DNA of 41,664 nt from Actinomycetota bacterium (GTDB taxonomy: Bacteria > Actinomycetota > Acidimicrobiia > Acidimicrobiales > WLNW01). A program made the position numbers and the translations under genes. The notes below the pieces were generated by a model, which ran no database searches, was not told where the DNA came from, and worked only from the letters and a program-made list of their open reading frames with translations. Numbering within the stretch: position 1 is the first letter of the stretch; every line of letters starts with the position of its first letter. The stretch covers positions 1 through 41,664 of the forward strand of contig JAYUFA010000138.1 in NCBI GenBank assembly GCA_043738925.1, given 5' to 3'. Shown here one piece after another: positions 1,232 to 27,817 of the stretch.

Positions 1232-1250
1232 CGCTTCGTACACTACGGCT

Positions 1251-5133: not shown

Positions 5134-5212
5134 GAACCTGCACCAACGACCCGTGCCGACAGGCGAGGGCGACCGAGCAGCCCAGCGCTGCCCCTCGGTA
5201 CAGTCGCCAGCC

Positions 5213-5950
5213 ATGGCGGGCTCGCATTGGTTCGAGGAGTTGGCCGACCACATGGGCCCGGCCGACTTGCGGTATTCGTTCACCTACGGCACCGAGCAGG
5301 AGGTCGGGTTCCTGATCGACGCGCTCGGCCTCGAACCTGGTATGCGCGTGCTCGATGTCGGCTGCGGTCCGGGCCGCCACGCATACGCTCTCGCACGGCG
5401 TGGCATCGCGGTGCATGGCGTCGATATCTCACAGCGATTCGTCGACTTGGCCCGCGCGTCGGCGCCTCCTGGCGCCACCTTCGAGCGCGCTGACGCCCGA
5501 ACCCTCGCCTATGACGGCATGTTCGATGCGGTGATCTCGTTGTGCCAGGGTGCCTTCGGTCTGGCTGCGCTTCCCGGTGCCCCATTTGGTGACGATCCCG
5601 ACGGCACGATCCTGCACTGCATCGCCCGCGCGGTTCGGCCGGGCGGTCGCGTGGCAGTCAGTGCCTTCTCGGCATATTTCCAGATCGTCCATGCTCTTGA
5701 GGGAGCGACCTTTGACGCCGATTCAGGCGTGAGCCATGAATGGACCGAGATACGAAACTCGGTGGGCGCCGCGGTCGATATCGAGCTCTGGACGAGCTGC
5801 TTCACCCCGCGTGAGCTGCGGCTGTTGGCTCTTGCCGCTGGGTTGGCCCCCGAAGCGGTGTGGGCGGTGCGCCCCGGCGAATACGCCCGCAACGCGCCTG
5901 ACCTCGAACACGAGGAGTTCCTTCTCGTGGCGCGGCGGCCGTCACGATAG
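5213..5950 (+). CDS. class I SAM-dependent methyltransferase
   Basis: Track ORF trimmed to ATG 5213. Motif I VLDVGCGPGRHAYALARRG, then IAVHGVDIS and FDAVISL. Confidence 0.85.
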   Translation: MAGSHWFEELADHMGPADLRYSFTYGTEQEVGFLIDALGLEPGMRVLDVGCGPGRHAYALARRGIAVHGVDISQRFVDLARASAPPGATFERADARTLAYDGMFDAVISLCQGAFGLAALPGAPFGDDPDGTILHCIARAVRPGGRVAVSAFSAYFQIVHALEGATFDADSGVSHEWTEIRNSVGAAVDIELWTSCFTPRELRLLALAAGLAPEAVWAVRPGEYARNAPDLEHEEFLLVARRPSR

Positions 5951-6071
5951 GCTGAGGCCCAATTGGGCAAAGTGCCCACTCGATGCGTCTCGCCGATCAA
6001 GTGATCAGGGGCCATCCGATCCGAAGCAGTACTGCTCCAAGAAAGCTTTTCCTTTGTCCGAAGCTGCAACT

Positions 6072-7412
6072 ATGACGTCCACCGACCCCATCGCCATGGG
6101 GACATTCGACGACGAAGGGGTATACACGCCCCGAGTCATTGTGGAAAACGATCTCGCTGATGACGCACTTGATGAGGCCTACGCCGCGACCATGGTCATG
6201 GTCGAGGACGGCCAGATCGTCGAAGGCACCGTCGTCAAGGTCGACCAGGACGAAGTCCTGCTCGACATCGGGTACAAGTCCGAAGGCGTCATTCCCGCTC
6301 GCGAGCTGTCGATTCGTAACGATGTCGACCCGCATGAGGTGGTCAGCCTTGGCGAGCGCGTCGAAGCGCTCGTCCTGCAAAAAGAGGACAAAGAGGGTCG
6401 ACTGATCCTGTCGAAGAAGCGGGCCCAATACGAACGGGCCTGGGGCAAGATCGAAGAGATCAAGGCCCGCGATGGTGTGGTTTCCGGTCCGGTCATCGAG
6501 GTTGTCAAGGGCGGCCTCATCGTCGACATCGGCCTGCGCGGCTTCCTGCCGGCGTCGCTGGTCGAGCTGCGTCGCGTGCGCGACCTGCAGCCGTTCGTCG
6601 GCCGTGTGCTCGAGGCGAAGATCATCGAGCTCGACAAGAACCGAAACAATGTCGTGCTGTCGCGTCGTGCGTACCTCGAAGAGACGCAGAAGGACCAGCG
6701 CGAGCAGTTCCTCGACAATCTCAAGCCGGGCGAGGTCCGCAAAGGCGTCGTGTCATCGGTGGTCAACTTTGGTGCGTTCGTCGATCTTGGCGGTATGGAT
6801 GGCCTCATCCACGTGTCCGAGTTGTCGTGGAAGCACGTAGACCACCCCGGCTCGGTCGTGGCGGTTGGCGACGAGGTCACCGTGCAGGTGCTCGAGGTCG
6901 ACCTTGAGCGTGAGCGCATCAGCTTGTCGCTGAAGGCCACCCAGCAAGATCCGTGGCAGGCGTTCGCGTCGAACCATCGCGTGGGAGAACTCGTTTACGG
7001 CCGGGTCACCAAACTGGTGCCGTTCGGTGCGTTTGTCCAGGTCGGCGATGGTATCGAGGGTCTCGTTCACATCTCCGAGATGTCAGCGCATCACGTTGAC
7101 CTCCCCGAGCAAGTGGTCACCCCGGGCGAGGAGCTGTGGGTCAAGATCATCGATCTCGACCTCCAACGCCGCCGCATCAGCTTGTCGATCAAGCAGGCTG
7201 CAGAAGGTGGCATTGTGGCCGCCGAGTACCAGGAGCATTTCGGCGAGCACGCCTACGACGCTGAGGGCAACTACATCGGTACGCCGACCGAAGGCCAGCA
7301 GGCGTGGGAGGAATACTTCGCCGAGTATGGCGACCCCGCGGCCGAGGGCGCACCGGCCGAAGCTCCGGTCGTCGAGGCTGAGGCTGAGGCCGAGGCCGAC
7401 ATCACCGCCTGA
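6072..7412 (+). CDS. rpsA: 30S ribosomal protein S1
   Basis: Track ORF trimmed to ATG 6072. Four S1 OB-fold repeats (GTVVKVDQDEVLLDIGYKSEGVIP, GPVIEVVKGGLIVDIGLRGFLP, GVVSSVVNFGAFVDLGGMDGLIHVSE, GRVTKLVPFGAFVQVGDGIEGLVHISE) and an acidic EAEAEAEA tail. Confidence 0.97.
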   Translation: MTSTDPIAMGTFDDEGVYTPRVIVENDLADDALDEAYAATMVMVEDGQIVEGTVVKVDQDEVLLDIGYKSEGVIPARELSIRNDVDPHEVVSLGERVEALVLQKEDKEGRLILSKKRAQYERAWGKIEEIKARDGVVSGPVIEVVKGGLIVDIGLRGFLPASLVELRRVRDLQPFVGRVLEAKIIELDKNRNNVVLSRRAYLEETQKDQREQFLDNLKPGEVRKGVVSSVVNFGAFVDLGGMDGLIHVSELSWKHVDHPGSVVAVGDEVTVQVLEVDLERERISLSLKATQQDPWQAFASNHRVGELVYGRVTKLVPFGAFVQVGDGIEGLVHISEMSAHHVDLPEQVVTPGEELWVKIIDLDLQRRRISLSIKQAAEGGIVAAEYQEHFGEHAYDAEGNYIGTPTEGQQAWEEYFAEYGDPAAEGAPAEAPVVEAEAEAEADITA

Positions 7413-7466
7413 GAACGAGCGCCGATTGGTGACGCCCCGCCGGGTCGTCCAAGAACATCATTTCGA

Positions 7467-7504
7467 CAATGGGTCGCCTGAGCAGGGCGGCCCATTGCCG
7501 TTTT
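7467..7504 (+). terminator. rho-independent terminator after rpsA
   Basis: 12-bp stem caatgggtcgcc / ggcggcccattg (one G-U pair) with a 7-nt loop, followed by ccgtttt. Confidence 0.6.
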
Positions 7505-7697
7505 CACGCTGTTCGTCCGCGACGTTCAGGCACGCGCGCAGATCGTCACGAGATTTCGCTCAACGCACCGGCATTCGGTGCCGACGTTGATCGAGAGCCC
7601 AGTTGGCGACTGTCGTGAGCCGACGAGAGTCCTCAACTTGGGCGAGACGGGTCCGAAAAGACTTCAGATCCGATGTCTCACGAGGAACGAGGTCGCG

Positions 7698-8618
7698 GTG
7701 AGTTCTCGCAGAACGATGGTGCTGATCGCGGCGATCGCCATGGGCGCGCTTGCCGCATTCGTACTTCGGAACTACATCCATGATCAGGAGCAGAAGGCGA
7801 ACCCGAACCCGGTGGACGTCTGGGTTATCACCGCTGACCTGAAGCGCGGCGAACCGTTCACCTCGGCCAAGGCTGCCATCAAGAAGCAGACGATGCCGGT
7901 CAAGTACCGGCCCTCGACGTTCGTCGAAGACCTCAAGTCCCTCGAAGGCAAGGTCGCGGCGACGAACCTCGCCGCGAACCAGGTTCTGGTCAAGGACATG
8001 TTCGTCGGGTCAGATCTTGCAGCCAGTGGCCTACGGGAGCGCCTTGGTGCGGGCATGGTCGCTATCGCCGTGCCGATCGAAGGCGTACGAGCGGTCGGTG
8101 GTTTGCTGCAACCGGGCGACGAGGTCAACATCATGGTGGCACCGAAGGGGACTGATGCTCCGGCCGCGGCTCCGGCTACACCCGGCACGTCCGGCGGCGT
8201 CGACCCGACCAAGTCGCCCTACCTGACGGCTTCGCGGTACCTCTATCAGCAAGTGCGCATCTTGAGCATCGGCTCGTCGGTGCGTCCGCAACCGGGCGAG
8301 GTTGCTGTGGCGAGCACCGCGGCTGCCTCGTCGACCGTTGCGGTCAGCGGCGGTTCGATCGTGTTCGAGGTGCCGCCCGACGCCGCTCAGATCATCGCAT
8401 CGATCGACCCCAGCACCTTCTATCTGACCCTGATCCCGAAGAGTTGGGCGCTCACCTCGCTGCCGGCGTTCAAGCCCGAGACCGTGAAGAACGGCGCAGT
8501 ACTGCCGGGTGAGGACCCCGCGAGGCTCACCCCCTATGGCCCGAAGGGGTACACGACCGGTGCCGTTGGCACCACCTCGGGTGCGACTGCACCCCCCACA
8601 ACCGCAAAGGCCAACTGA
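7698..8618 (+). CDS. cpaB: Flp pilus assembly protein CpaB/RcpC (SAF-domain)
   Basis: N-terminal TM (MVLIAAIAMGALAAFVL), a SAF-like segment (VDVWVITADLKRGEPFT...VKDMF) and a C-terminal beta domain. First gene of the tad operon. GTG 7698 has a GAGG-rich upstream region. ATG 7716 is an alternative. Confidence 0.8.
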   Translation: MSSRRTMVLIAAIAMGALAAFVLRNYIHDQEQKANPNPVDVWVITADLKRGEPFTSAKAAIKKQTMPVKYRPSTFVEDLKSLEGKVAATNLAANQVLVKDMFVGSDLAASGLRERLGAGMVAIAVPIEGVRAVGGLLQPGDEVNIMVAPKGTDAPAAAPATPGTSGGVDPTKSPYLTASRYLYQQVRILSIGSSVRPQPGEVAVASTAAASSTVAVSGGSIVFEVPPDAAQIIASIDPSTFYLTLIPKSWALTSLPAFKPETVKNGAVLPGEDPARLTPYGPKGYTTGAVGTTSGATAPPTTAKAN

Positions 8619-8619
8619 C

Positions 8620-9900
8620 ATGTCGTCCTCCTTCTTCGCTGACGAGCCGGATTGGTATCGAGCGGAGGCGTACGGGCAGTCCAACACCGCGACCGAACCG
8701 CCGCGCGTCCCGTCGCCGGCGACCGGCCAGGCGTTGCGTATCGCCGTCGCGCTGATTGAGCGCGACCCGTACCTGCGCGACCGCCTCGCCGCGCAGCTCG
8801 GGCAGGGTGTGAGCACCTTCAACTCGATCGATGAGCTCTCTGTGCGCCTCAACGGCACACCAGTTGTGGCCATCCTCGGACCGTCGTGCATTCAAGACGG
8901 CGTGCTGTCAGGCGTCGATCGCCTCATTCAAACCCGCAATGAGGTTGGTGCGATCCTCATTGCTCCGGAGCTGTCGACGGCCCTGTTGCAAACGGCGTTG
9001 CGTGCCGGCGTCAAGGACGTTCTCACGTTGCCGGTGACCGCCGAGCAGATCTTCGAGGCTGTCGAGCGCGTGGCGAACACGTTGAAAGCGACGCCCGTCC
9101 CGCAGTTCGTCGGGCGCCCGAACACGGAGGACTACGACCCCGGTGAGGTCGGTCAGGTCATCACCGTGTTCTCGACAAAGGGCGGTGCCGGCAAGTCGGT
9201 GATCGCCGCCAACCTCGCTGTGCTCCTCGCGCAACGTAGTGACCGGCCGGTGTGCCTCGTTGACGCCGACCTGCAGTTCGGCGATATCGCGGTGATGTTG
9301 AAGCTCGCGCCGCAGCACACGATCGTTGACACGGTTGCGTCGCTCGACCGTCTCGACGTGTCGCTGATGCAAAGCCTGTTGACGTTGCACCCGGCGTCGG
9401 GACTGCTCGTATTGGCCGCACCGCTCGAACCCGCGTTCGCCGACCAAATCGGTGCGGCCGAAATGGTGAAGATCATCGAGATCCTTCGCCGGTTCTGTTC
9501 GCACGTCGTGGTGGACACGCCCGCCTACTTCAACGACGTCGTGCTTGGTCTGATCGAGGTCAGCGACGACGTTCTGCTTGTTGCGGGCATGGACGTTCCC
9601 AACATCAAGAACGTCAAGATCGGCCTACAAACGTTGCGGCTGCTCAACACGCCGAAGGAGAAGCTGCGGCTTGTCCTCAACCGGGCGAACTCGAAGGCGA
9701 AGCTCGATGTGAGCGAAGTCGAGCGCACCTTGCAGGTCAACGCCGACGCGCTCATTCCGAGTGACGTTGTCGTACCGCAAGCCGTCAACAAAGGGGTGCC
9801 GGTCGTGCTGGCTGCGCCACGCTCGTCGGTGACGAAAGCACTCGAAGAACTCGCCGATCTGTTCTTGCCCGTTGGGGCAACCAAGCGTCGCAAGCGCTGA
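8620..9900 (+). CDS. cpaE: CpaE/TadZ-type pilus localisation ATPase (pseudo-receiver + MinD/ParA domain)
   Basis: Track ORF trimmed to ATG 8620, 2 nt after the cpaB stop. Receiver-like N-domain followed by the deviant Walker A ITVFSTKGGAGKSVIAANLA and VDADLQFGD. Confidence 0.85.
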   Translation: MSSSFFADEPDWYRAEAYGQSNTATEPPRVPSPATGQALRIAVALIERDPYLRDRLAAQLGQGVSTFNSIDELSVRLNGTPVVAILGPSCIQDGVLSGVDRLIQTRNEVGAILIAPELSTALLQTALRAGVKDVLTLPVTAEQIFEAVERVANTLKATPVPQFVGRPNTEDYDPGEVGQVITVFSTKGGAGKSVIAANLAVLLAQRSDRPVCLVDADLQFGDIAVMLKLAPQHTIVDTVASLDRLDVSLMQSLLTLHPASGLLVLAAPLEPAFADQIGAAEMVKIIEILRRFCSHVVVDTPAYFNDVVLGLIEVSDDVLLVAGMDVPNIKNVKIGLQTLRLLNTPKEKLRLVLNRANSKAKLDVSEVERTLQVNADALIPSDVVVPQAVNKGVPVVLAAPRSSVTKALEELADLFLPVGATKRRKR

Positions 9901-9983
9901 CCAGCCAAACGTCCCGTGGGTTCGCCAGACCCGCACACACGATGACCTCGGGTTTCGAAGCCTGAGGTTGGGAGCAGAGAGAG

Positions 9984-11354
9984 ATGTCGCTCTACAGACG
10001 ATTGCACGAGGTTCAACAGGCGCCGGCGAGCGGCACCTCCGCGAGCCATCGCGACCCCGTGCTCGCCGAGATGCGGCACAAGATCCATCAGCGGCTCATT
10101 GACGAGCTCGGCCCGATTCTCTACGACAACCGCATGGAAGCCGACGAGCTTCGCAAGCGAGTGCACGAGCAACTGCATGCGGCGCTCGCGCTCGAACGGG
10201 CGCCGCTGTCAGCGGCCGACAAAGCGCAGCTCATTCAGGACGTTTCCGACGACATCTTGGGATACGGCCCAATCGACAAGTTGCTCAAGGATCCCGATAT
10301 CTCGGAAATCATGTGCAACGGGCCTGACAGCGTGTACGTCGAACGCAAGGGCAAGCTCGTCAAGGACGCCACGACGTTCGTCGATGCGCAGCACCTGCGG
10401 CGCATCATCGACAAGATCGTCGGCCAAGTCGGACGTCGCATCGACGAGTCGACGCCGTTGTGCGACGCGCGTCTACCAGACGGCTCCCGCGTGAACGCCG
10501 TCATCTCGCCGCTCGCGATCGGCGGACCGTTTCTCACGATCCGCAAGTTCTCGGCAAACCCCTTGCAGATCGACGATCTCATTCGCTTCGGAACCCTCAA
10601 CGCGCACGCGGCGCGATTCATGCAGGCGTGCATCGTCGGCAAGCTGAACGTGATCGTCTCGGGTGGTACCGGCACCGGCAAGACCACCACGCTCAACGTG
10701 TTGTCGTCGTTCATTCCGAGCGACGAGCGCATCGTGACCGTTGAAGATGCAAAGGAGCTTCAGCTCCATCAGGATCACGTCCTCGCGCTCGAAACGCGGC
10801 CACCGAACATCGAAGGTCGTGGTGAAGTCACCATACGCGACCTCGTGAAGAACTCGCTGCGCATGCGACCCGACCGCATCGTCGTGGGCGAGTGTCGCTC
10901 CGGCGAAGCGCTCGACATGCTCCAGGCGATGAACACCGGCCACGACGGTTCGCTCACGACGATTCACGCGAACACGCCGCGCGACACCCTCGCCCGCCTC
11001 GAGACCCTCGTGCTCATGGCCGGCTTCGACTTGCCGGTACGCGCCATTCGCGAACAGATGTCCTCGGCTATCGACCTCATCGTTCAGGTCTCACGTCTTC
11101 GCGACGGCAGCCGCAAAATCACCCACATCACCGAAGTGCAGGGCATGGAAGGCGAGATCATCACCTTGCAGGACGTGTTCTTGTTCGACTTCAGTTCCGG
11201 TGTCGACGAGAACGGCAAGTATCGCGGCCAGTTGCGTGCGACTGGCGTGCGGCCGAAGTTCGTTGAGAAGCTCGCGGATCAGGGCATCAGGCTCGGTCCA
11301 GAGGTGTTCAACCCCAACCCCGGTGGCGTCGCGACACGCGCGCCGGGGCGGTGA
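9984..11354 (+). CDS. cpaF: CpaF/TadA secretion ATPase (type II/IV secretion NTPase)
   Basis: Walker [15 protein letters not shown], Walker B / Asp box [15 protein letters not shown] and His box [14 protein letters not shown]. Confidence 0.95.
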
Positions 11355-13303
11355 AGCACGTGCAAACCATGTCGGTGCCTGCGCCGGGCCGGGCTCGTCG
11401 TGCTCCCGGGCGTGCGCTTGCCGCATCGCTGCTGGTGGGCGTGACCCTATTCGTCGGTGGCGCTTCGGCATACGCGGACAAGCCAGCGCCGGCGCCGGGC
11501 ACGGTCGTTGCGATCGACATGTCGGGGGTCACACAATCGATCGTGCTTCGCAATCCGACGCCGCCGACGAGTGCCACGGTGATGGTCAATGGCCAGCCGG
11601 CCAAGGTGACCGGTGTGGCGCCGACGAGTGACAGCGCGGCGTCCGAGAGCGTTCTGGTCATCGACACGTCGACGACTGCCGCCACCCGCCTCCCGCGCGT
11701 GCGCGCCGCCGCGCTGCGGTTTGTCGCGGGCATCAAGCCGGGCGAGCGGGTCGCGATCGTCAGCGCCGGCGGGTTGCCGCAACTCGAAGCTGCGCTCACG
11801 AGCGACGTGACCGTGCTGAACACCGCGATCAACAACCTGAAGTCAAACGGTGCCACCGTGTTGTTCGATGGCGTAACGACATCGTCACGTCTGCTTGGGG
11901 ATCAAGCCGGTCCATTGCGGTCGGTGACGGTCCTCGCCGCGAGTGCCGATGCTGGGGCAAAGGCCGCCGGTTCGATCGCACGTGCCGACGCGCTTGACTC
12001 CGATGTCGCGGTGAACGTGATCGCGCTGACCAGCGACGATTTCTCGCCTGTTGCCGCCGGCACGTACCAACAGCTGGCGAACGACACGGCGGGCAGCTTC
12101 GACGCCACGGGCGACCCCGACCAGTTGAGTGCTCTGACGGACAAGGCCACTGCACGTCAGCGGAGCCTCTATACCGTTCGCGTTACGTCGGATCAGGCGA
12201 CTGCGGGTGGCAACATCATCGTCGATCTTGGCCAGGGTCCGATCCAGGCCGGATTTGTACCGGGTGCGCTCACGATCGGCCCGGCACTGAAGAACACCGT
12301 GGCCGCGTCCGACTCCGGCGTGAGCTTCCTGAAAGGCAGTCGCGGGATCGCCATTGCGTTGTTGCTTGGCGCGGGCGCGGCCGCGCTCGGCGCGTTCGCG
12401 CTCGGCAGCCTGCTCATCAAAGACGACAACGGTCTGAAGTCGGTCTTGCGTCCGTACACCGAGCCGGATGCCGACGCGGGCGAAGGGAGCGCGCTCGCGA
12501 AGAACGCCATCTTCCAACGCGCAGTCGAGTTGACGAGCAACCTCGCTGAGCGTCAAGGAGTTCTCGTCAAGGCGGAGAAGGCGCTGGAGCAGGCGAACCT
12601 GCCGTTGCGCGCGGCCGAAGCGTTGACGTTCTATGTCGGCATCGTGCTCGCCTCGGCGGTATTGGGATTCCTGTTTCAACGAACAGTGCTCGCAGCGTTT
12701 GTCCTCGCGGTCATCGGTGCGTTGATTCCGCCCGCAGTGCTGAGCTTCCTCGCGAAGCGGCGCCGCAAGTCGTTCATGCTTGCGCTGCCTGACATGCTCA
12801 CATTGCTCGCGGGCACACTCAAGGCCGGCTATTCGTTCATGCAGGGCGTGGAAGCGGTCTCTCGCGAAGTCGAGGACCCGATGGGTAGCGAGTTGCGGCG
12901 CGTTGTCACCGAGGCACAGCTTGGTCGTCCGCTTGAGGAAGCGCTTGAGGCATCCGCCGAACGAATGGCCAGCCCGGATTTCTCCTGGGCCGTGATGGCC
13001 GTGCGGATCCAGCGCGAGGTCGGCGGCAATCTGGCCGAACTCTTGATGACCGTCGCCGAAACAATGACCGCTCGCCAACGTCTTCGCGGCGAAGTAGCGG
13101 CGCTCACCGCCGAGGGCAAGATCTCGGCGATCGTGCTCGGCATCTTGCCTGTCGGCTTGGGTGCGGTGCTGTTTGTGCTCAACCCCGCGTACATGAACGT
13201 TCTCCTTCACGACACGCTTGGTCGCATCATGCTCGGCGTTGCCTGTGTGTCCGCGCTCGCCGGGTTTGCGTGGATGAAGAAGATCATCAACATCAACATC
13301 TGA
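11351..13303 (+). CDS. tadB: fusion protein: signal/TM + von Willebrand factor A domain + TadB (type II secretion system F) membrane domain
   Basis: The start overlaps the cpaF stop (GTGA). The N-terminus is RARRAPGRALAASLLVGVTLFVGGASAYA. The vWA-like core has a MIDAS-like VLVIDTSTT, then RVAIVSAGG and VLFDG. After a TM near aa 335-355 there is a typical TadB/GspF region (KRRRKSFMLALPDMLTLLAGTLKAGYSFMQGV...LGRPLEEAL...VMAVRIQREVGGNLAELL). Confidence 0.85.
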   Translation: MKHVQTMSVPAPGRARRAPGRALAASLLVGVTLFVGGASAYADKPAPAPGTVVAIDMSGVTQSIVLRNPTPPTSATVMVNGQPAKVTGVAPTSDSAASESVLVIDTSTTAATRLPRVRAAALRFVAGIKPGERVAIVSAGGLPQLEAALTSDVTVLNTAINNLKSNGATVLFDGVTTSSRLLGDQAGPLRSVTVLAASADAGAKAAGSIARADALDSDVAVNVIALTSDDFSPVAAGTYQQLANDTAGSFDATGDPDQLSALTDKATARQRSLYTVRVTSDQATAGGNIIVDLGQGPIQAGFVPGALTIGPALKNTVAASDSGVSFLKGSRGIAIALLLGAGAAALGAFALGSLLIKDDNGLKSVLRPYTEPDADAGEGSALAKNAIFQRAVELTSNLAERQGVLVKAEKALEQANLPLRAAEALTFYVGIVLASAVLGFLFQRTVLAAFVLAVIGALIPPAVLSFLAKRRRKSFMLALPDMLTLLAGTLKAGYSFMQGVEAVSREVEDPMGSELRRVVTEAQLGRPLEEALEASAERMASPDFSWAVMAVRIQREVGGNLAELLMTVAETMTARQRLRGEVAALTAEGKISAIVLGILPVGLGAVLFVLNPAYMNVLLHDTLGRIMLGVACVSALAGFAWMKKIININI

Positions 13304-13313
13304 GGCTGACGGC

Positions 13314-14237
13314 ATGGATCCACAAATCGCCATCATGGGTGCCGGCGCAGGCTTCGGTCTCGCGGCCTACGCCGTGCTCGCGCAGGTCGATGAACGCAAG
13401 TCGATTCGTGACTCGCTGCGCCACCTCGAGGGTTTTGAGACCGTCAACGATACGCGCGACCGGGAGCTGTTGAACCCGTTACGCGACCGCGCGGTTACTC
13501 CGTTGCTCGGCGCGATGACGCGTGTCGGCCGCAAGTACACACCGGTTGGCTACGTCGACAACGTGCGTCGCAAGTTCACGCTTGCCGGAGAGGGCACGCC
13601 CGACGCTGTCGATCGTTTTCTCGCCGTGCGCGTGGGAACGGTCGTCGCGATTCCGGTCATGTTGTGGCTGATGCTCGGACTCAACCCGTTAGGCATGGCA
13701 GGCAAGTCGCAGTGGGCGGTCACCTTGATGCTGTGCTTCGCGCTCGGGGCTGGCCCCGACGCGATGCTCAACCGCAAGGTCCAAGAGCGCCAAGGCCTCA
13801 TACTGCGCCAGCTCCCCGACATTTTGGACCTGCTCACCATCTCGGTTGAGGCGGGTCTCGGGTTCGAGCAGGCACTGGACCGCACGATTCACGCAGTGCC
13901 GGGGCCACTGACCGAGGAGTTCGCTCGCATGCTCGGCGAGACGCGCGCTGGCGCGAGCCGTAGCGAAGCGATGCGCGCGCTCGAGAGCCGCATCGACATC
14001 CCCGAGGTGCGCTCGTTCGTGTTGGCCGTGCTTCAGGCTGACACCTTCGGTATCTCGATCGGTCGTGTCATGCGTTCGCAGGCCGACGAGATGCGCGTGC
14101 GCCGTCGGCAAATGGCGCAGGAAAAGGCGATGAAGGCACCGGTGAAGATGCTCATTCCAATGGTGTTCTGCGTCTTCCCCGCGCTGTTCGTCGTGGTCAT
14201 CGGTCCCGCGATGATCAACATCAAGAACACCTTCTGA
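13314..14237 (+). CDS. tadC: TadC (type II secretion system F family) pilus platform protein
   Basis: QLPDILDLLTISVEAGLGFEQAL...AVLQADTFGISIGRVMRSQADEMRVRRRQMAQEKAMKAPVKMLIPMVFCVFPALFVV is the canonical T2SF/TadC pattern. Confidence 0.85.
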   Translation: MDPQIAIMGAGAGFGLAAYAVLAQVDERKSIRDSLRHLEGFETVNDTRDRELLNPLRDRAVTPLLGAMTRVGRKYTPVGYVDNVRRKFTLAGEGTPDAVDRFLAVRVGTVVAIPVMLWLMLGLNPLGMAGKSQWAVTLMLCFALGAGPDAMLNRKVQERQGLILRQLPDILDLLTISVEAGLGFEQALDRTIHAVPGPLTEEFARMLGETRAGASRSEAMRALESRIDIPEVRSFVLAVLQADTFGISIGRVMRSQADEMRVRRRQMAQEKAMKAPVKMLIPMVFCVFPALFVVVIGPAMINIKNTF

Positions 14238-14256
14238 AGGCCGGAGAGCGGGGCCG

Positions 14257-15816
14257 GTGACACTCACGCGGACGGATCCGACGGCCAGCGTTGTTGCGAG
14301 CCCGACGGTCGAACCGGCGAGTGCGCTGACAAACGATGAACGCACGGGTTCGCGCACGGGCTCGCTCGCAACGGTGTGCGCCGCGGTGCTCGTGCTCGTG
14401 GCGGGAATCATCGGGTCGAAGCAGCTGCACGACAACAGCTTCCTGACCCACCTGGCAACGGGGCGCTGGATCGCACACGGCAACCTTTCGCGACTTTGGA
14501 TGGGCACGAACGATCCGTATCTGTGGACCTCCGGTGGTCGTCGCTGGGTGGTACAGAGCTGGCTGGCGTCGGTCGTCTATGACGGCGCTGAACGCATCGG
14601 CGGCGCCGCGCTGATTCGATTGGTCGTCGCGGCCAGCTGCATGGCCCTTACGGCGATCTTGTGGCAGCTGAGCGTGGTCGGTCGCACGCTTGTGCCCCGA
14701 GTGATCGCGGTCGGCGCCGCTTTGGCGATCGGCGGCACAGCTTGGAGTGAACGGCCATATCTGTTTGGCCTCGTGTTCCTCGGGCTGGCCCTTCTCGCCG
14801 TCGAAGGCCGCTTGCGGCTTGGTTGGTTGGTGCCGATCGGCTGGCTGTGGGTGAACACGCACGGATCGTTCCCGCTCGGACTCGTCGCCGTCGCGACTGT
14901 TGCCGTCGGCGCGCGACTTGACGGTGACAACATCGCGCGCGAGCTGCGCGCGCTGCGCAACTTGACTCTCGGCTGTGTGCTCGGCGGCGTGTTGAGCCCC
15001 GTAGGTCCGGTGCTGTTGGCCTTTCCTCTGACGTTGCTTCGGCGCCAGGACGTGCTGGCCAACGTGCAGGAGTGGAAGTCGACGGATTTCGCGCAGAGCT
15101 GGGCCAAGGTCTTCCTGCTCGTCGTCGCGCTTTGTGTCGTGGGTCTCGTGCGGCGACCGAGCTATCGGAGCGCGATTCCCCTCGCGGTCTTCGCCGTCGC
15201 CGGTACGATGGCGGGCCGAAACGTTGTGGTGGCCTCCGTCGTTCTCGTACCGATCCTGGCGCGGGGTTTGGCCGACGTCGGCTCGCTCCGCGACGTGCGC
15301 ACGGGCGCAACACGGATGGCCACGATCGCGCTCGTCGCATTGACCCCGATTTTCGTTGTATCGAACGCGGCCGTGGGTGATTTCCAACTAGCGGCCTATC
15401 CGGTGTCGACGATGGATTGGCTCGAGGCGCGCGGGTTGCTCGACGGGTCGACCAAGATCGTTGAGCAGGATTTTGTCGGCAACTACATCGAGTGGCGCTA
15501 TGGGCCGACGGTGCCTGCGTTCATCGACGATCGGTACGACTTGCACGACCGTTCGCTTGTCCACGACTACGTCGCGTTGCAGCACGGAACGCGCGGTTGG
15601 CGTGATGTTCTCGATCATCGCAATGTCGATGTGGTTGTATGGAACCACGACGGTGTTCTCGCAGAGTTGCTTTCGCACGCCGATGGCTGGTCACTCGCGT
15701 TCGACTCGTCGATCACCGGTGGTGTCAGCGGCGCGGTGGACGACGCAACGAAGGCGCCGGCAGGCGTGTCCTACGTCGTGTATTGCCGCGTCGGCGTGTC
15801 GCGCTGCTTTGGCTAG
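14257..15816 (+). CDS. large polytopic membrane protein with C-terminal soluble domain, possibly GT-C-like; family not recognised
   Basis: Starts 20 nt after tadC on the same strand. I count about 10-12 hydrophobic segments. The first loop reads HDNSFLTHLATGRWI...NDPYLWTSGGRRWVVQSWL. A roughly 150-aa C-terminal non-membrane domain follows (YPVSTMDWLEARGL...FIDDRYDLHD...VDVVVWNHD). High GC3 supports coding. Confidence 0.6.
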   Translation: MTLTRTDPTASVVASPTVEPASALTNDERTGSRTGSLATVCAAVLVLVAGIIGSKQLHDNSFLTHLATGRWIAHGNLSRLWMGTNDPYLWTSGGRRWVVQSWLASVVYDGAERIGGAALIRLVVAASCMALTAILWQLSVVGRTLVPRVIAVGAALAIGGTAWSERPYLFGLVFLGLALLAVEGRLRLGWLVPIGWLWVNTHGSFPLGLVAVATVAVGARLDGDNIARELRALRNLTLGCVLGGVLSPVGPVLLAFPLTLLRRQDVLANVQEWKSTDFAQSWAKVFLLVVALCVVGLVRRPSYRSAIPLAVFAVAGTMAGRNVVVASVVLVPILARGLADVGSLRDVRTGATRMATIALVALTPIFVVSNAAVGDFQLAAYPVSTMDWLEARGLLDGSTKIVEQDFVGNYIEWRYGPTVPAFIDDRYDLHDRSLVHDYVALQHGTRGWRDVLDHRNVDVVVWNHDGVLAELLSHADGWSLAFDSSITGGVSGAVDDATKAPAGVSYVVYCRVGVSRCFG

Positions 15817-15922
15817 GTCGTCGGAACTCACGCGGTTTCCCTCATGAACCGTCGATATGGGACCGATGGACTAGTGGGCTCGCGGTCGCGGCTTTCGAAT
15901 GTCGAAGTGGCAGAGGTTGATC

Positions 15923-16570
15923 ATGACAATCCGGTTGATGCTCGCTGACGACCATCGCATGTTGCGCGAGGGTCTCGGTCGGTCCATGCGAGAGCAGGGC
16001 TTCGATGTGGTGGGCGAGGCGAGCGACGGCGCCGAAGCAGTGTTGATGGCTCAGCGCCTACGGCCGGATGTGATCCTGATGGACGTCACGATGCCCGAGA
16101 TGGACGGCGTCGAGGCGTGTCGCCAGGTGCGCGCGGACTTGCCGGCCACTCAGGTGGTGATGCTCACGATGCACGCCGATCAAGAAGTGCTCGCCTCGGC
16201 GATTCGCGCGGGCGCGAGCGGCTATCTCGTCAAGGACTGTTCGACCGAGGAGATCGCCTCAGCGGTGCGAATGGCTGCGAGCGGCGAGACGGCCTTGTCG
16301 CCACAGCTCGCGGCGTCGATGCTCAACGAGGTACGGAAGTGGGACAAGGCTGCGGCGGCCGAAGAGGAACGCGTCGTGACCAAGCGTGAAGAAGAAGTGC
16401 TGCAGCTCATCGCCGACGGATGTTCGACGCCCGAGGTTGCCGCGAAGCTCTATATCAGCCAGAAGACGGTCAAGAACCATCTGGCTTCGATCTATCAGAA
16501 GCTCGACGCTCGCGACCGCACGCAAGCCGTGCTGCAAGCAGTTCGCATGGGCATCGTGCACCTCGACTGA
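15923..16570 (+). CDS. NarL/FixJ (LuxR-type HTH) response regulator
   Basis: Track ORF trimmed to ATG 15923, with GAGG 8-11 nt upstream. Receiver motifs (LMLADDHRML, DVILMDVTMPEMDG, MLTMH, YLVKD) and a LuxR HTH (TKREEEVLQLIADGCSTPEVAAKLYISQKTVKNHLASIYQKLD). Confidence 0.9.
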   Translation: MTIRLMLADDHRMLREGLGRSMREQGFDVVGEASDGAEAVLMAQRLRPDVILMDVTMPEMDGVEACRQVRADLPATQVVMLTMHADQEVLASAIRAGASGYLVKDCSTEEIASAVRMAASGETALSPQLAASMLNEVRKWDKAAAAEEERVVTKREEEVLQLIADGCSTPEVAAKLYISQKTVKNHLASIYQKLDARDRTQAVLQAVRMGIVHLD

Positions 16571-16743
16571 TGACCTCGACTGCGCGGTCATATCGCCCGC
16601 GCAGACGACCCGATAGGCGAGGCGACCGGCGGTTCGACGTGAACGATTCGTCCGACCTATTTGGCCGCGCTGCTCGCACGTCGAAAGAACATGTAGTTCG
16701 GTAGCCGCCGTGGCCGCCGGGAACACATGGGAGCCACTCCGTC

Positions 16744-16929
16744 ATGATCACCCCCGTCCGTTTCTTCACCGCCTGGGTCGCCGCACACGTCAAGAGCGAG
16801 CGTGGCGCTTCGCTCGTCGAGTACGCGCTGCTTGTTGCCCTCATCGCTGTGGTGTGCATCGCCGCCGTGACCACGCTCGGCAAGAACGCGTCGAGCAAGT
16901 TCAACTCGGTTGGTTCGTCGATCGCCTGA
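16744..16929 (+). CDS. flp: Flp/Fap family type IVb pilin, copy 1 (61 aa)
   Basis: Leader MITPVRFFTAWVAAHVKSERG, then the Flp processing motif G/ASLVEYALLVALIAVV and a short Ser-rich tail KNASSKFNSVGSSIA. GGGAG lies upstream. Confidence 0.9.
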   Translation: MITPVRFFTAWVAAHVKSERGASLVEYALLVALIAVVCIAAVTTLGKNASSKFNSVGSSIA

Positions 16930-16953
16930 GCGACGCCTCCGATCTTGCGTTCC

Positions 16954-16993
16954 GAGTGGGGCGGGCCTATGGGCTCGCCCCACTCGTCGTTTT
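16954..16993 (+). terminator. rho-independent terminator after flp copy 1
   Basis: Perfect 10-bp stem gagtggggcg / cgccccactc with a 12-nt loop, followed by gtcgtttt. Confidence 0.7.
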
Positions 16994-17127
16994 GGGGCGA
17001 TTCGTGCCCGATCCAAATGATCTGGATTGCCTATCTCCCTCACGGCTTCCGATGTCGATCCCTCTAGCAACAACAACCCGGGGCATCGATGGCGACGCAC
17101 CGGACCAACCGTAGGAGTCCAACTGCC

Positions 17128-17313
17128 ATGATCACCCCGATCCGTTTCTTCACCGCTTGGGTCGCCGCACACGTCAAGAGCGAGCGTGGCGCATCCCTCG
17201 TCGAGTACGCGCTGCTCGTCGCCCTCATCGCTGTGGTGTGCATCGCCGCCGTGACCACGCTCGGCAAGAACGCGTCGAGCAAGTTCAACTCCGTGGGCTC
17301 TTCGCTCGCCTAG
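17128..17313 (+). CDS. flp: Flp/Fap family type IVb pilin, copy 2 (61 aa)
   Basis: Track ORF trimmed to ATG 17128, with AGGAG 9-13 nt upstream. The protein is identical to copy 1 except V5I and I60L. Confidence 0.9.
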   Translation: MITPIRFFTAWVAAHVKSERGASLVEYALLVALIAVVCIAAVTTLGKNASSKFNSVGSSLA

Positions 17314-17323
17314 TCGATTCAGC

Positions 17324-17362
17324 GGTCTCTGCGGCGGGGCGATCACCCACGCCGCAGAGACC
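17324..17362 (+). terminator. strong hairpin after flp copy 2 (terminator-like, no U-tract)
   Basis: Perfect 13-bp stem ggtctctgcggcg / cgccgcagagacc with a 13-nt loop. No T-run follows. Confidence 0.45.
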
Positions 17363-17475
17363 GCACCATCGTCGATAGCTCTCGCCCGCGTGGCTGCCAC
17401 CTATTCGTGCCGGTGCCTCATGGCAATGCCGGCCATCGCACTCGAGCAAAACCATCTCATCCGGGAGTCCACCCG

Positions 17476-17652
17476 ATGCTCGTGCCTTGCTTCTCCTTCT
17501 CTCCGTTCCGTACTCGCTCCGATCGAGGTGCCTCGCTCGTCGAGTACGCCTTGCTCATGGCGCTGATCGCACTGGCCTGTTTCGCGGCTCTGCGCTTCTT
17601 CGGAACCAGCATGAGCAGCCGGTATTCCATCTCCGCCAGCAGTATCGGCTGA
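17476..17652 (+). CDS. flp: divergent Flp family pilin, copy 3 (58 aa)
   Basis: Track ORF trimmed to ATG 17476, with GGGAG upstream. MLVPCFSFSPFRTRSDRG/ASLVEYALLMALIALACFAALRFFGTSMSSRYSISASSIG has the same G/ASLVEY motif but a different leader and tail. Confidence 0.8.
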   Translation: MLVPCFSFSPFRTRSDRGASLVEYALLMALIALACFAALRFFGTSMSSRYSISASSIG

Positions 17653-17684
17653 CGAGCGCGGCGTCAGCCGCGAGACCATTGACA

Positions 17685-17711
17685 CGATCTCGAACCTCTG
17701 ATTCGAGATCG
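17685..17711. terminator. hairpin between convergent flp3 and histidine kinase (possible bidirectional terminator)
   Basis: 10-bp stem cgatctcgaa / ttcgagatcg with a 7-nt loop, in the 64-nt gap between two convergent stop codons. Confidence 0.45.
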
Positions 17712-17716
17712 AAATG

Positions 17717-19561
17717 TCAATCCGTGCGGGCTCGCAGCACACAGCGCACCGAGGTGCCCTTGCCGGTGCCGCTCGTGATGTCAAGCGTGGCGCCGATGCT
17801 CGACGCTCGCTCGCGCATGCCGATCATGCCGTAGGAGTCAAGGCGACCGACTCGACCTTGTGGGAACCCTTCGCCGTCGTCGGCGACCTCGAGCGAGGCG
17901 TTGCGTCCGTCGCACTGCCATCTGATCTCGACGTGACGCGCCTTCGAGTGCCGTTCGACATTGACGAGCGCTTCCTGCGCGATGCGCCACATCTCGCGTT
18001 CTTGCAGGATGGGCAAGCGCGGCCCGGGGTCGGCGAAGAACGAGAAGTGTGTGGTCGTGCGTTCGCGTAGCCGCTGCACGAACGCCTCGATCGTCTTTGC
18101 GATGTCACTGGCCTCAGACACGTCGGTGCGCAGGTCATACAGCGTGTCGCGCACTTCTCCGATGACGCCGCGCACATCATTGCGAAGCTGCATGAGCGCG
18201 GGGCCGACGACATCGCCCTTCGCGTCGCGCGCAACGATGCGGTCAAGTTCGAACGCCAAGTAGGCGAGCGATTGGCCGATGCGGTCGTGCAAGTCGCGGG
18301 CAATGCGTGTGCGTTCTTCGTCGGCGCCAACCGTGCGGAGTCGACTGAACCAGCGAGCGTTGTCGATCGCCAGGGCAACGGGTTCGACGAAGCCGTTCAG
18401 CATTTCGAGGTCGCGGCGAGAGAAGTGGTTGGGAAGTCGGTGCTCGATCGCGAGAAGACCGATGACCGCGCCGCGCGCGGCGAGAACGGTGTAGATGCCG
18501 CACCCCGCGTTCGGCGACAAGCCAGTTGCCCCATCGGTGGTGAGATCAGCTACCTCGACGAGTTGGTTGCGGGCCAGAGCGCGCTTCAACGCTGAAGGCA
18601 ACTCGGTCGGGCCGAGCCGCGAGGGCATGGTCACACCTTCGCGTCGCAACACTTGCCAATGAGCGTCGGTGTCGTCGAACAGCAAGATGGCAACGGTGGT
18701 GAAGTCGACCAGGCCGCGCAGACGCGCGATCGTCGTGTCGAGCACCTCGTTCATGTCGAGCGATGCAGGCAACGACTGCGCGACGCGGTGCAGCGAGAAG
18801 AGCAGCGCGTTGGCATCGGAGAGTCGCGTCAAGCGATCGAGCGCAAGCGAACGTTGACGATCGGCTTCGCCGGAAATGCGGCGGGTGTACCCGGCGATCA
18901 CCGCAACCAGCAGCATGATGACCGTCCATTGGACGGTGACCTTGATCTCGCTTTCGCCGTAGTTCGGCTGCAACGCGAATGGGATGCCGATCGCGAGCGA
19001 CGCAGCAACCCCTACGCGCAGCGCAAACGCATATCCGCGTGCGAATCCCGCGACGATGACCGACGTGGCAAGCGAGAAGACGAAGGGGGAGGCCCAGTAG
19101 CCGGTCGCGGTCACCGCGGCAACGAGGATCGCGACCTCGGCGAGCACTACCGTGAGGCTCTGGATGTTGCCGAGGTAGCGCACCGGGTTGAGCGTGCGGA
19201 ATACGGTGTGCAATACGATGACCATGCACCACCCGACGACCCACCAGTCCGCGGCCGCGAACGCCTGGCCGGCGAGCGCGATCGACACCATGGTCGTTCC
19301 CCACCGGATTGCCAACAGCGCTGGGCCGAACGGGCGCACACGGTCGACCTGATCGAGGATGGCGAGCACGTCATCGCCGTCATAGCCGTCGCTGGCCCGT
19401 CCGATACGCGCAAGCGGTTGCAGCCATGACGAGCGTCGGTGCGCGGGCCCGTACGCTCCAGGCAGCATCGATGTGGCGTCGCGGCGATGCTCGGATGGGG
19501 TCAGCGTGTCGATCGGTCCTGCACCTCGATGGAAACTGCCTGCACGTGCGCGGCACTTCAT
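17717..19561 (-). CDS. membrane-bound GAF-domain sensor histidine kinase (HisKA_3/NarX-type)
   Basis: About 6 N-terminal TM segments, a GAF-like region (LVDFTTVAILLFDD...GLLAIEH), an H-box RIARDLHDRIGQSLAYLAFELD and an HATPase domain (EALVNVERHSKA..., EVADDGEGF, GMIGMRERA...GTSV). The start is uncertain; internal Met and Val codons are possible. Confidence 0.9.
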   Translation of the reverse strand: MKCRARAGSFHRGAGPIDTLTPSEHRRDATSMLPGAYGPAHRRSSWLQPLARIGRASDGYDGDDVLAILDQVDRVRPFGPALLAIRWGTTMVSIALAGQAFAAADWWVVGWCMVIVLHTVFRTLNPVRYLGNIQSLTVVLAEVAILVAAVTATGYWASPFVFSLATSVIVAGFARGYAFALRVGVAASLAIGIPFALQPNYGESEIKVTVQWTVIMLLVAVIAGYTRRISGEADRQRSLALDRLTRLSDANALLFSLHRVAQSLPASLDMNEVLDTTIARLRGLVDFTTVAILLFDDTDAHWQVLRREGVTMPSRLGPTELPSALKRALARNQLVEVADLTTDGATGLSPNAGCGIYTVLAARGAVIGLLAIEHRLPNHFSRRDLEMLNGFVEPVALAIDNARWFSRLRTVGADEERTRIARDLHDRIGQSLAYLAFELDRIVARDAKGDVVGPALMQLRNDVRGVIGEVRDTLYDLRTDVSEASDIAKTIEAFVQRLRERTTTHFSFFADPGPRLPILQEREMWRIAQEALVNVERHSKARHVEIRWQCDGRNASLEVADDGEGFPQGRVGRLDSYGMIGMRERASSIGATLDITSGTGKGTSVRCVLRARTD

Positions 19562-19684
19562 CTATCGGCAGTCCCGGTCCCGATCTGATCGCGACTGATG
19601 CATTTGGCCCGGGTCGATCGGCCTGGTGGGTGCGGATCCGCCACGGCGCCTTGATGCGTCTCATCCGGGCGGAAGACCGATACT

Positions 19685-20368
19685 GTGCGCCAGAACGCCT
19701 ATGAGTACGAACCCTTTCTCCTCGTGATCGAAATTGGGCTCACCGGGGGAATCGGCTCTGGCAAATCGACCGTCGCGCGGGCGCTCGTAGCGCGTGGCGC
19801 CACGCTGATCGACGCTGACGCTGTCGTACGAGATGTGCAGGCGCCGGGATCACCTGTTCTCGTGGACATGGTCGAAGCGTTTGGTGACCACATCCTCCAG
19901 GCAGACGGCAGCCTCGATCGCGCCAAGGTCGCGGGTGTCGTGTTCGGTGACGCAGCGATGCTCGCGCGGTTGAACGACATCGTTCATCCTGCGGTAATCA
20001 ATGAGATGACACGGCGCCGTACGTTGCTGGCAGATTCGGACGCGACTGTATTGCTCGATGTACCGCTGCTCATCGAGACAGGTTTCGAGCATCTCGGCGG
20101 CATCATCGTGGTCGATGTTGACCTTGAGACGGCTGTGGAACGTCTTGTCGAGCAGCGCGGTTTCACGGGTGACGACGCGCGAGCGCGAATCGCCATGCAG
20201 ATGAGTCGCGAGGAGCGCGTCGCCCACGCAGACTTCATCGTCGACAATGGTGGCGATCTCGACGCGCTCGACGCCCAGATCGAGGCCTGCTGGGAATGGA
20301 TCATGTCGTTGCCCCGTCCCAAACCGGGAGGCCCCGTGGTGCCCATTCGTCGTAGAGGAGAGAACTGA
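19685..20368 (+). CDS. coaE: dephospho-CoA kinase
   Basis: P-loop IGLTGGIGSGKSTVA, then IDADAVVRDVQAPGSP and HPAV. The start may be GTG 19724 rather than GTG 19685. Confidence 0.9.
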   Translation: MRQNAYEYEPFLLVIEIGLTGGIGSGKSTVARALVARGATLIDADAVVRDVQAPGSPVLVDMVEAFGDHILQADGSLDRAKVAGVVFGDAAMLARLNDIVHPAVINEMTRRRTLLADSDATVLLDVPLLIETGFEHLGGIIVVDVDLETAVERLVEQRGFTGDDARARIAMQMSREERVAHADFIVDNGGDLDALDAQIEACWEWIMSLPRPKPGGPVVPIRRRGEN

Positions 20369-27757: not shown

Positions 27758-27803
27758 CTCTACAAACCATCGACATCGCGACCGTTGACCTGAGGCGTCT
27801 GAG

Positions 27804-27817
27804 GCGGTCGCGACCGC
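27804..27817. promoter_or_regulatory. perfect 14-bp palindrome in divergent promoter region (candidate operator)
   Basis: GCGGTCGCGACCGC is its own reverse complement. It overlaps a direct repeat of TGAGGCG at 27791-27797 and 27800-27806. It lies in the 104-nt gap between the divergently transcribed Wzy_C and GT-C-like genes. Confidence 0.3.

Follow-up and report, generated by a model that had tools for sequence, protein, structure and literature searches.

Canonical Tad loci are represented by flp-tadV-rcpCAB-tadZABCDEFG of A. actinomycetemcomitans and pilA-cpaA-F of Caulobacter, and loci of this kind are said to have been classically described as horizontally spread islands (Tomich, Planet and Figurski 2007, cited in PMC5696575). 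Those described from actinobacteria, including M. tuberculosis (Rv3654c-Rv3660c), Bifidobacterium breve (tad2003), Micrococcus luteus and a Cutibacterium acnes plasmid, have a single-membrane tadZ-tadA-tadB-tadC set with a small Flp pilin, and carry TadE-like pseudopilins (TadE1-4) downstream of tadC (PMC5696575). The peptidase of the actinobacterial systems is often encoded elsewhere. Here, a 12-kb block of Tad/Flp genes is described that lies between rpsA and coaE on contig JAYUFA010000138.1, a chromosome stretch of the Acidimicrobiales (class Acidimicrobiia, Actinomycetota) with a GC content of 64%; the whole stretch that was analyzed, 41,664 nt in length, is referred to as the window. Comparison with relatives indicates that the block is very probably a native, vertically inherited and order-wide Tad/Flp locus that has been lost repeatedly. 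Like the canonical loci it encodes TadA/CpaF, TadB, TadC, TadZ/CpaE and CpaB/RcpC, together with short Flp pilins that have a G/xxxxEY site (the slash marking the cleavage position), but it has no secretin, TadD or other outer-membrane parts, no tadV/cpaA peptidase and no tadE/F/G, its pilin genes do not lead the operon, and it adds a vWA domain on TadB, a predicted GT-C glycosyltransferase and a two-component system. With the actinobacterial loci it shares the single-membrane tadZ-tadA-tadB-tadC set and the small Flp, but the TadE position is occupied by the putative GT-C gene, and no TadE domain was found. To our knowledge, neither a vWA::TadB fusion nor a linked kinase and regulator has been described for an actinobacterial Tad locus.

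Each named component of the block is backed by Pfam or NCBIfam profiles, with the exception of a 519-amino acid (aa) protein (Table 1), and the Tad/Flp gene assignments and order given in an earlier reading of the sequence alone (the original prediction) were borne out by these hidden Markov model searches. Several start codons were revised slightly. The cpaB gene most likely begins at GTG 7698 and not at 7578 as had been proposed, and starts were set at 8620 for cpaE, 17128 for flp2 and 17476 for flp3; the CpaB N-terminus, VSSRRTLILIAAI, is conserved among Tad-bearing loci. The ATG start of cpaE lies one base past the cpaB stop codon. Its product scored 72.8 bits against the NCBIfam model CpaE_hom_Actino, under the cutoff of 154, and matched TadZ_N weakly, while the counterpart in relative L081 is 426 aa long and the place of cpaE/tadZ in the operon is conserved in relatives. 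For CpaF/TadA, which is 65–92% identical in relatives, the best NCBIfam match was the TadA family TIGR03819 (332 bits, just under the cutoff of 373). The GTG start of the vWA::tadB gene overlaps the cpaF stop codon, and TadB and TadC have one T2SSF domain each. The genes of the assembly operon are closely spaced or overlapping, and all intergenic gaps in the block are shorter than 290 nt; riboswitches and other known RNAs were sought in these intergenic regions, and no Rfam match was obtained at E ≤ 1. A stable hairpin is found downstream of each flp gene. The histidine kinase gene is convergent with flp3 and has orthologues in relatives, and its true start is probably internal to the open reading frame (ORF) listed, since the kinase of L081 has 524 aa.

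The state of the junction was determined in 80 species-representative Acidimicrobiales loci, using rpsA as anchor with 10-kb flanks and tblastn searches with the window proteins; the sample was confined to this order, without an outgroup. The best rpsA matches all came from Acidimicrobiales genomes, metagenome-assembled or isolate, and identity across the 80 species ranged from 79 to 96%. Contigs ended too early in eight cases, leaving 72 informative loci. The assembly operon (cpaB-cpaE-cpaF-vWA::tadB-tadC) directly follows rpsA in 41 of these and is missing from the other 31, where the gap between rpsA and coaE is less than 300 nt (11 species), holds only a small helix-turn-helix (HTH) gene (11 species), measures 765 nt and contains a chimeric scar (one species, L016), or is filled with other cargo (8 species). 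CpaB is too divergent for tblastn, but phmmer placed a homologue directly after rpsA in 42 of 42 Tad-bearing loci, the window included. Two relatives were traced across the whole block to coaE. L081, whose 519-aa protein is 88% identical, agrees exactly with the window in its arrangement through coaE and a 337-aa gene, while L083 (45% identity in the same protein, 3.3-Mb contig) reads rpsA-RcpC-CbiA-T2SSE-VWA/T2SSF-T2SSF-(467 aa), then three Flp genes and a response regulator gene on the minus strand, followed further on by coaE and uvrB. Conservation across the order thus extends to the block as well as to its two ends.

In M. tuberculosis the gene order is polA-rpsA-coaE-uvrB (Rv1629-Rv1633); a literature search on the adjacency of Rv1630 and Rv1631 returned no match. 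The original prediction had described the block as inserted into this junction. It is indeed interposed between rpsA and coaE, and a contiguous variant of the two genes does exist, in the 11 species with a short gap, so that the refuting outcome named with the prediction (the same genes at this position in all relatives, and no contiguous variant) did not occur. However, the interposition did not arise in this genome or among its near relatives, given that the block occupies the same junction in 41 of 72 species. An older insertion relative to other Actinomycetota is plausible.

The direction of change was judged from a neighbor-joining tree of rpsA (single-gene, midpoint-rooted, no outgroup), in which pilus-bearing species occupy all deep branches and pilus-free species form at least six groups nested among them. 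Two scars were found at pilus-free junctions. The first is an intact 95–98-aa ORF, consisting of a LuxR-type HTH only, that lies between rpsA and coaE in a clade of 11 species. It is 82–87% identical to the C-terminus of the pilus-linked regulator, and 60% identical over a longer stretch in L038, and no receiver domain, kinase, pilins or assembly genes are present at the junction in this clade; the gene may have been kept as a stand-alone regulator. Several contig names in the clade point to lake metagenomes. The second scar is a 62-aa ORF in L016, in which a CpaB N-terminus is joined in frame to the core of an Flp pilin. The N-terminus of this chimera, VSSRKTLILIAAIGVGIFAGIA, agrees with CpaB from L026/L060, the sister clade, in about 20 of 22 residues and continues in frame as SLVEYALLL..., the Flp core, as would be expected if the DNA between the start of cpaB and an flp gene of the same orientation had been deleted. 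For TadA, TadC, vWA::TadB and the GT-C protein, distances between pairs of species are correlated with those of polA or rpsA (Spearman 0.39–0.71), and the backbone control, rpsA against polA, gave 0.59. The nesting of pilus-free clades, the two deletion scars and this co-divergence together indicate that the block is ancestral to the sampled Acidimicrobiales, mostly vertically inherited, and repeatedly lost.

Table 1. Positions of features in the window and, where a locus is named, at the corresponding junctions of relatives.
Feature	Sequence	Coordinates	Strand	Evidence or remarks
DUF3105 ORF	window	755-1435	-	Pfam E = 1.5e-14
ORF upstream of ANTAR regulator	window	1089-1541	+	34–59% identity in most relatives (tblastn)
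SAM-dependent methyltransferase	window	5039-5950	+	between polA and rpsA
rpsA, ribosomal protein S1 (left flank)	window	6069..7412	+	Pfam S1 255 bits, four S1 domains; start from translation
Intrinsic-terminator-like hairpin of rpsA with UUUU	window	7464..7504	+	RNA fold -25.8 kcal/mol, z = -3.83, 1/200 shuffles as good
cpaB/rcpC	window	7698..8618	+	N-terminal transmembrane anchor, SAF and RcpC (47.9 bits); TIGR03177 99.3 bits (cutoff 71)
cpaE/tadZ-like ParA/MinD-family ATPase	window	8620..9900	+	CbiA 49.6 bits, ParA and AAA_31 above cutoffs
cpaF/tadA secretion ATPase	window	9984..11354	+	Pfam T2SSE 206.7 bits
vWA::tadB fusion, 650 aa	window	11351..13303	+	VWA_2 36.9 bits and T2SSF 71.5 bits in one ORF
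tadC platform protein	window	13314..14237	+	Pfam T2SSF 69.3 bits; 54–68% identical in relatives
519-aa polytopic membrane protein, predicted GT-C fold	window	14257..15816	+	no family match; structure model
NarL/LuxR-family response regulator (REC and GerE)	window	15899..16570	+	Response_reg 105 bits, GerE 67 bits
flp1 pilin, 61 aa	window	16744..16929	+	Flp_Fap 49.7 bits (gathering score 32.2); aligned with Flp ORFs of relatives
Terminator-like hairpin 3' of flp1	window	16953..16986	+	15-bp stem, 12 GC pairs, T run; -37 kcal/mol, z = -5.5
flp2 pilin, tandem duplicate of flp1	window	17128..17313	+	Flp_Fap 49.3 bits (gathering score 32.2)
Hairpin 3' of flp2	window	17322-17364	+	-44.7 kcal/mol, z = -7
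flp3, divergent Flp-like pilin	window	17476..17652	+	Flp_Fap 24.6 bits, under gathering score 32.2; orthologue in L081
Sensor histidine kinase (multi-TM N-terminus, GAF, HisKA_3, HATPase_c)	window	17717..19561	-	Pfam; NCBIfam NarX/MctS-like; longest ORF given
coaE (right flank)	window	19685..20368	+	Pfam CoaE 184.6 bits
344-aa ORF between coaE and uvrB	window	20371-21405	+	AMP-binding/ANL similarity, sub-threshold (Pfam E = 0.003)
uvrB-uvrA interval	window	23578-29631		envelope-glycan genes
HTH-only ORF	L015	11390-11677	-	also in nine further loci
HTH-only ORF	L038	11423-11719	-	
CpaB-Flp chimera	L016	11704-11949	+	62 aa
GT87-family (GT-C) gene	L050	19028-20284	+	between regulator and flp
426-aa ORF	L071	8950-10230	+	position matching the GT-C gene
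Glycosylation-like cargo	L049	11457-16142		similar in L029, L040, L048 and L052
Longer Flp, Aquihabitans-type	L063, L070, L075	~19600-19950	+	Cys-containing C-terminal extension

The cargo found at the junction in other species is diverse. L080, which is free of the pilus, carries the regulator and kinase alone, and L053 has a ParA-like gene with a regulator. In pilus-free L049 and similar loci there are genes for a YfhO-like GT-C membrane protein of 759 aa, a fusion of GT2 with a methyltransferase, and a regulator of the NarL type, which together resemble a set for lipid-linked glycosylation in two steps.

No Pfam or NCBIfam match was found for the 519-aa protein encoded after tadC, and its 740 homologues are all unnamed or 'hypothetical', none of them with a Pfam domain. 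An AlphaFold2 model was obtained with 42 homologues (pLDDT 89.3, pTM 0.88), and in a Foldseek search of this model against the PDB the top 15 matches were all GT-C enzymes, including STT3/OST, DPY19, PglB, ALG12 and AftB (E 1e-6 to 1.6e-2, probability 0.98–1.0, TMq 0.34–0.55). The protein is therefore predicted to have a GT-C glycosyltransferase fold. Residues D59 and N60, which are invariant in the 42 homologues, lie just after the first transmembrane (TM) helix (37–53), in the first outer loop. In GT-C enzymes the catalytic acid is located in the region after the first TM helix, and the surroundings of D59 appear to match this region. The gene directly follows tadC in 30 of 32 informative loci, and does so in the window at a distance of 19 nt. 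It is absent from the Tad loci of L050 and L071, of which the former has a GT87-family (GT-C) gene directly upstream of flp, and the latter a 426-aa ORF at the matching position. Sequence kinship of the 519-aa family with the GT87 or YfhO-like junction proteins was considered and rejected, as none is detectable (hhalign probability < 1%). In L050 the replacing enzyme is unrelated but has the same fold, which is an argument for GT-C activity being part of the pilus system.

All three pilins have the processing motif RG/ASLVEYALL. In Flp1, cleavage is predicted at G/ASLVEY and would give a mature pilin of 40 aa with a Ser-rich tail; mature Flp proteins of the clade have 40–44 residues and a conserved Ser/Thr-rich end motif, ASSKFSxVGSxI. 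The flp1 and flp2 genes form a 198-nt direct repeat (16730-16927 and 17114-17311) with 91% identity, and the more divergent Flp3 is possibly a minor pilin. In L063, L070 and L075 (the last from Aquihabitans sp. G128, NZ_CP077604), which are Aquihabitans-type, a longer Flp with a Cys-containing C-terminal extension (...KSKDCISAAY...C.) is encoded on the strand of the assembly operon.

The vWA::TadB architecture (PF13519 and PF00482) is common to more than 100 homologues, and gene calling gave one undivided gene in both L081 and L083. An AlphaFold2 model of the window protein shows an N-terminal anchor (TM 20–36), a beta-sandwich plus vWA domain (vWA 98–271, pLDDT ~90), a second TM helix (330–355) and then the TadB domain (386–645). 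The vWA part was matched by Foldseek to vWF-A3 and similar structures (TMt 0.7–0.77), and by the positive-inside rule it would face outward.

In the proposed mechanism, TadA would power a TadB/TadC platform positioned by TadZ and CpaB, and the platform would polymerize the 40-aa mature Flp1 and Flp2 into an adhesive filament through the single-membrane envelope, for which no secretin is expected. Prepilins would be cleaved at the predicted site by a peptidase encoded outside the window. Using a polyprenyl-phosphate-linked sugar at the outer face of the membrane, the GT-C enzyme would O-glycosylate the Ser/Thr-rich pilin C-terminus, and the extracytoplasmic vWA domain on TadB would act as a scaffold or anchor on the outside, in place of accessory proteins of the TadE/F/G type, while the kinase and regulator would control flp transcription. 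The locus may tentatively be viewed as a distinct Acidimicrobiales subtype of Tad, with vWA-TadB in place of pseudopilins and with a GT-C enzyme of an uncatalogued family of more than 700 members that might O-glycosylate the Ser-rich Flp tail.

Several observations weigh against this scheme. In the 41.6-kb window, no ORF matched the prepilin peptidase family Peptidase_A24 and no TadE/F/G pseudopilin gene was found; the completeness of the machine is not judged from the window alone. The classic metal ion-dependent adhesion site motif (DxSxS) is not conserved in the vWA domain, where only D105 is nearly invariant. A scan for sigma-70-like promoters found none, and carries little weight as it is ill-suited to actinobacterial promoters. 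No gene for the synthesis of a sugar donor is present in the block. N-linked transfer of the STT3/PglB type, suggested by an N-A-S sequon in Flp1 and Flp2 and by the likeness of the GT-C model to these enzymes, was rejected, as most orthologous pilins lack this sequon, and because N-x-S/T is not conserved in relatives an O-linked or other linkage is preferred. O-glycosylation of the Ser-rich pilin tails by the GT-C enzyme, for which the evidence consists of gene linkage and fold, is a promising but still doubtful proposal.

The GT-C protein may instead be unrelated to the pilins, and glycosylate a cell-wall polymer or another envelope protein, or be a non-enzymatic structural part, merely co-transcribed with the assembly genes. 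No acceptor is known, no donor-synthesis gene accompanies it, other envelope-glycan genes (PMT_2-like, Wzy_C, GT1, GT2 and Bac_transf) occur in the window between uvrB and uvrA and beyond, and the YfhO-like GT-C protein is still found at the junction in the pilus-free L049 group. These points are countered by the position of the gene after tadC in 30 of 32 loci, by the unrelated GT87 directly upstream of flp in L050, by the conserved, Ser-rich pilin tails, and by the precedent of TfpW, a GT-C pilin glycosyltransferase of P. aeruginosa type IVa pili (bioRxiv 10.1101/2020.04.19.049825). Independence from the pilins is regarded as possible, if short of probable.

A second alternative concerns the role of the machine and not its identity, namely that it serves DNA uptake (competence) or secretion instead of adhesion. 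A link with natural transformation has been made for Tad systems of actinobacteria, with DNA uptake reportedly observed for the Flp pili of Micrococcus luteus (Angelov et al. 2015, cited in PMC5696575), and nothing in the locus specifies an adhesin. However, comEA and comEC are not present in the window, and a vWA domain together with the proposed glycosylation is more typical of surface interaction. Such a role is considered rather unlikely, and an adhesive filament is preferred.

The regulator and pilin part forms a sub-module in which two to four Flp pilin genes are combined with genes for a NarL-type regulator and a GAF histidine kinase, and it occurs in at least five orientations. Most commonly, the GT-C gene (+) is followed by two flp genes, the regulator and the kinase, all on the minus strand, in a unit that converges with the assembly operon. 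Other arrangements are GT-C(+) kinase(+), then GT-C(+) flp(+) regulator(-) kinase(-), and tadC(+) regulator(+) ... flp(+) kinase(-), and in one lineage coaE itself is inverted. Regulator orthologues, which are 66–84% identical, adjoin flp in relatives, usually on the opposite strand. The distal position of the pilins in the operon, as given by the original prediction, holds for this genome and L081 only, whereas most relatives have a separate convergent flp-flp-regulator-kinase unit. A lineage-specific inversion of the regulator-flp1-flp2-flp3 piece, relative to the common form, explains both the distal pilins and the solitary kinase on the other strand. No inverted repeats flank 15817-17716, so the inversion is read as evolutionary and no programmed switch is seen; a phase-variable segment was rejected on these grounds and because L081 has the same fixed orientation. 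The kinase and regulator pair is linked to flp in nearly all arrangements, persists in some pilus-free species such as L080, and by analogy with a system discussed below probably controls pilin expression.

It is also conceivable, though unlikely, that the junction is a recombination hotspot, and that the Tad block was gained several times, or exchanged via the rpsA and coaE flanks, instead of descending from one ancestor with loss. The varied cargo (L080, L053 and the L049 group) and the changing orientations of the regulator and pilin part agree with this, as do the moderate distance correlations, but the correlation of the backbone control was no higher, the two scars show deletion directly, and pilus-bearing species are found on all deep branches. 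Two reservations apply to vertical inheritance itself. As the tree is single-gene and midpoint-rooted without an outgroup, the term 'ancestral' leans mainly on the nesting and the two scars, and with correlations that are only moderate, some exchange of the block among relatives by recombination in the conserved flanks is possible. Vertical inheritance of an ancestral locus with repeated losses nevertheless remains the preferred reading.

The base composition of the block is that of its surroundings. GC content at third codon positions (GC3) is 0.76–0.89 in the block and 0.70–0.82 in the backbone, codon usage of the block correlates with that of backbone segments at r = 0.97–0.98, the same as between backbone segments, and tetranucleotide usage (r = 0.94–0.98) fits the flanks as well as the flanks fit each other. 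No tRNA was found in the block, no integrase or transposase domain in any of its ORFs, and no direct or inverted repeat of ≥9 nt common to both boundaries. The native composition indicates that the block is old, and on this as on the lack of mobility genes, tRNA and flanking direct repeats the original prediction was correct. The features expected of a mobile island (integrase or transposase, tRNA or repeat boundaries, deviant composition, patchy presence among close relatives) are absent. Horizontal acquisition of a 'widespread colonization island' at the rpsA-coaE junction, by this genome or one of its recent ancestors, as might be supposed from the interrupted synteny relative to other actinobacteria and from the gap of less than 300 nt in 11 Acidimicrobiales species, is highly improbable and, on any recent time scale, effectively refuted by a composition indistinguishable from the backbone, the lack of integrase, transposase, tRNA and boundary repeats, the same block at the same junction in 41 species with rpsA only 79–96% identical to that of the window, the co-divergence with the backbone and the deletion scars in pilus-free lineages.

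Backbone genes of the window were chosen by GC3-guided ORF selection and Pfam, and run in the order PNPOx-like gene, ANTAR response regulator, polA, S-adenosylmethionine (SAM) methyltransferase, rpsA, the block, coaE, a 344-aa ORF and uvrB, followed by envelope-glycan genes, uvrA, further glycosyltransferases and nadA. The predicted terminator of rpsA was recovered as a hairpin (7464-7500) followed by UUUU; it had been overlooked by a simple terminator scan because its T run has only four bases. The expected polA-rpsA and coaE-uvrB order is seen, with the 344-aa ORF intervening between coaE and uvrB. This ORF, which stands outside the pilus block, had been called PaaK-like, and a weak ANL/AMP-binding similarity does exist, but at sub-threshold level only; against the PDB it matched 2-hydroxyisobutyryl-CoA synthetase (E = 0.23). 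A homologue was not found by tblastn in any of the 80 species loci, a gene at the same position, of 337 aa, is seen only in the close relative L081, and the ORF appears to be a lineage-specific insertion between coaE and uvrB. One gene of the uvrB-uvrA interval encodes a protein of 603 aa that weakly resembles PMT_2 (GT-C); the interval also has a minus-strand gene of the Wzy_C/O-antigen-ligase-like kind and a 670-aa ORF without a family match, and after uvrA there are GT1, GT2, Bac_transf and FkbM methyltransferase genes. Near the left end of the window, the ORF matching DUF3105 overlaps an opposite-strand ORF that is kept upstream of the ANTAR regulator in most relatives, and the start of one of the two is probably mis-set. 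The methyltransferase encoded between polA and rpsA had no tblastn match in about 10 sampled species (e.g., L054, L057, L058, L067, L073 and L076) and seems to be a further variable insert in this conserved backbone.

The Acidimicrobiales inhabit soils, sediments, activated sludge, and fresh and marine waters, where these actinobacteria are abundant but poorly represented in culture. In the literature library that was searched, Acidimicrobiia were connected with Tad or Flp loci by incidental mentions only. What appears as an insertion in comparison with model actinobacteria is, in this reading, the ancestral state of the local clade. Since the locus has one conserved position and has been deleted repeatedly, including in the lake-linked clade with the HTH remnant, it could mark an attached as opposed to a free-living lifestyle. 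Should Flp prove to be a substrate of the GT-C enzyme, glycosylation would be extended to type IV pilins of the smallest class, and a function could be assigned to a large family of 'hypothetical' membrane proteins. The enzyme would then be the first one dedicated to pilin glycosylation to be described for type IVc pili.

Two further systems bear on these additions. The flp-tad-rcp locus of P. aeruginosa likewise has a dedicated two-component system beside tad, PprAB, which controls flp (PMC3510237, PMC6821963), and its pilin gene is likewise a transcription unit apart from the assembly operon. However, PprB is another type of regulator and PprA another kind of kinase, so that the likeness is one of analogy and not of orthology, and regulation of flp in the window would follow from that analogy. 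The 519-aa protein resembles TfpW (bioRxiv 10.1101/2020.04.19.049825) and STT3/AglB/PglB in its polytopic, predicted GT-C fold, its encoding near pilins and, possibly, its invariant acidic residue in the first outer loop, but belongs to no Pfam or NCBIfam family, has a smaller C-terminal outer domain (~130 aa), is associated with type IVc (Flp) and not type IVa pili, and accompanies pilins in which the N-x-S/T sequon is not conserved. The 'non-canonical composition' ascribed to the module by the original prediction is substantiated by the GT-C-fold membrane protein, the conserved vWA::TadB and the lack of pseudopilin and prepilin-peptidase genes in the window. Compared with the described systems, the architecture is mildly new, with its vWA domain on TadB, a built-in GT-C protein of an uncatalogued family, no pseudopilins, and a regulator and pilin sub-module that changes orientation.

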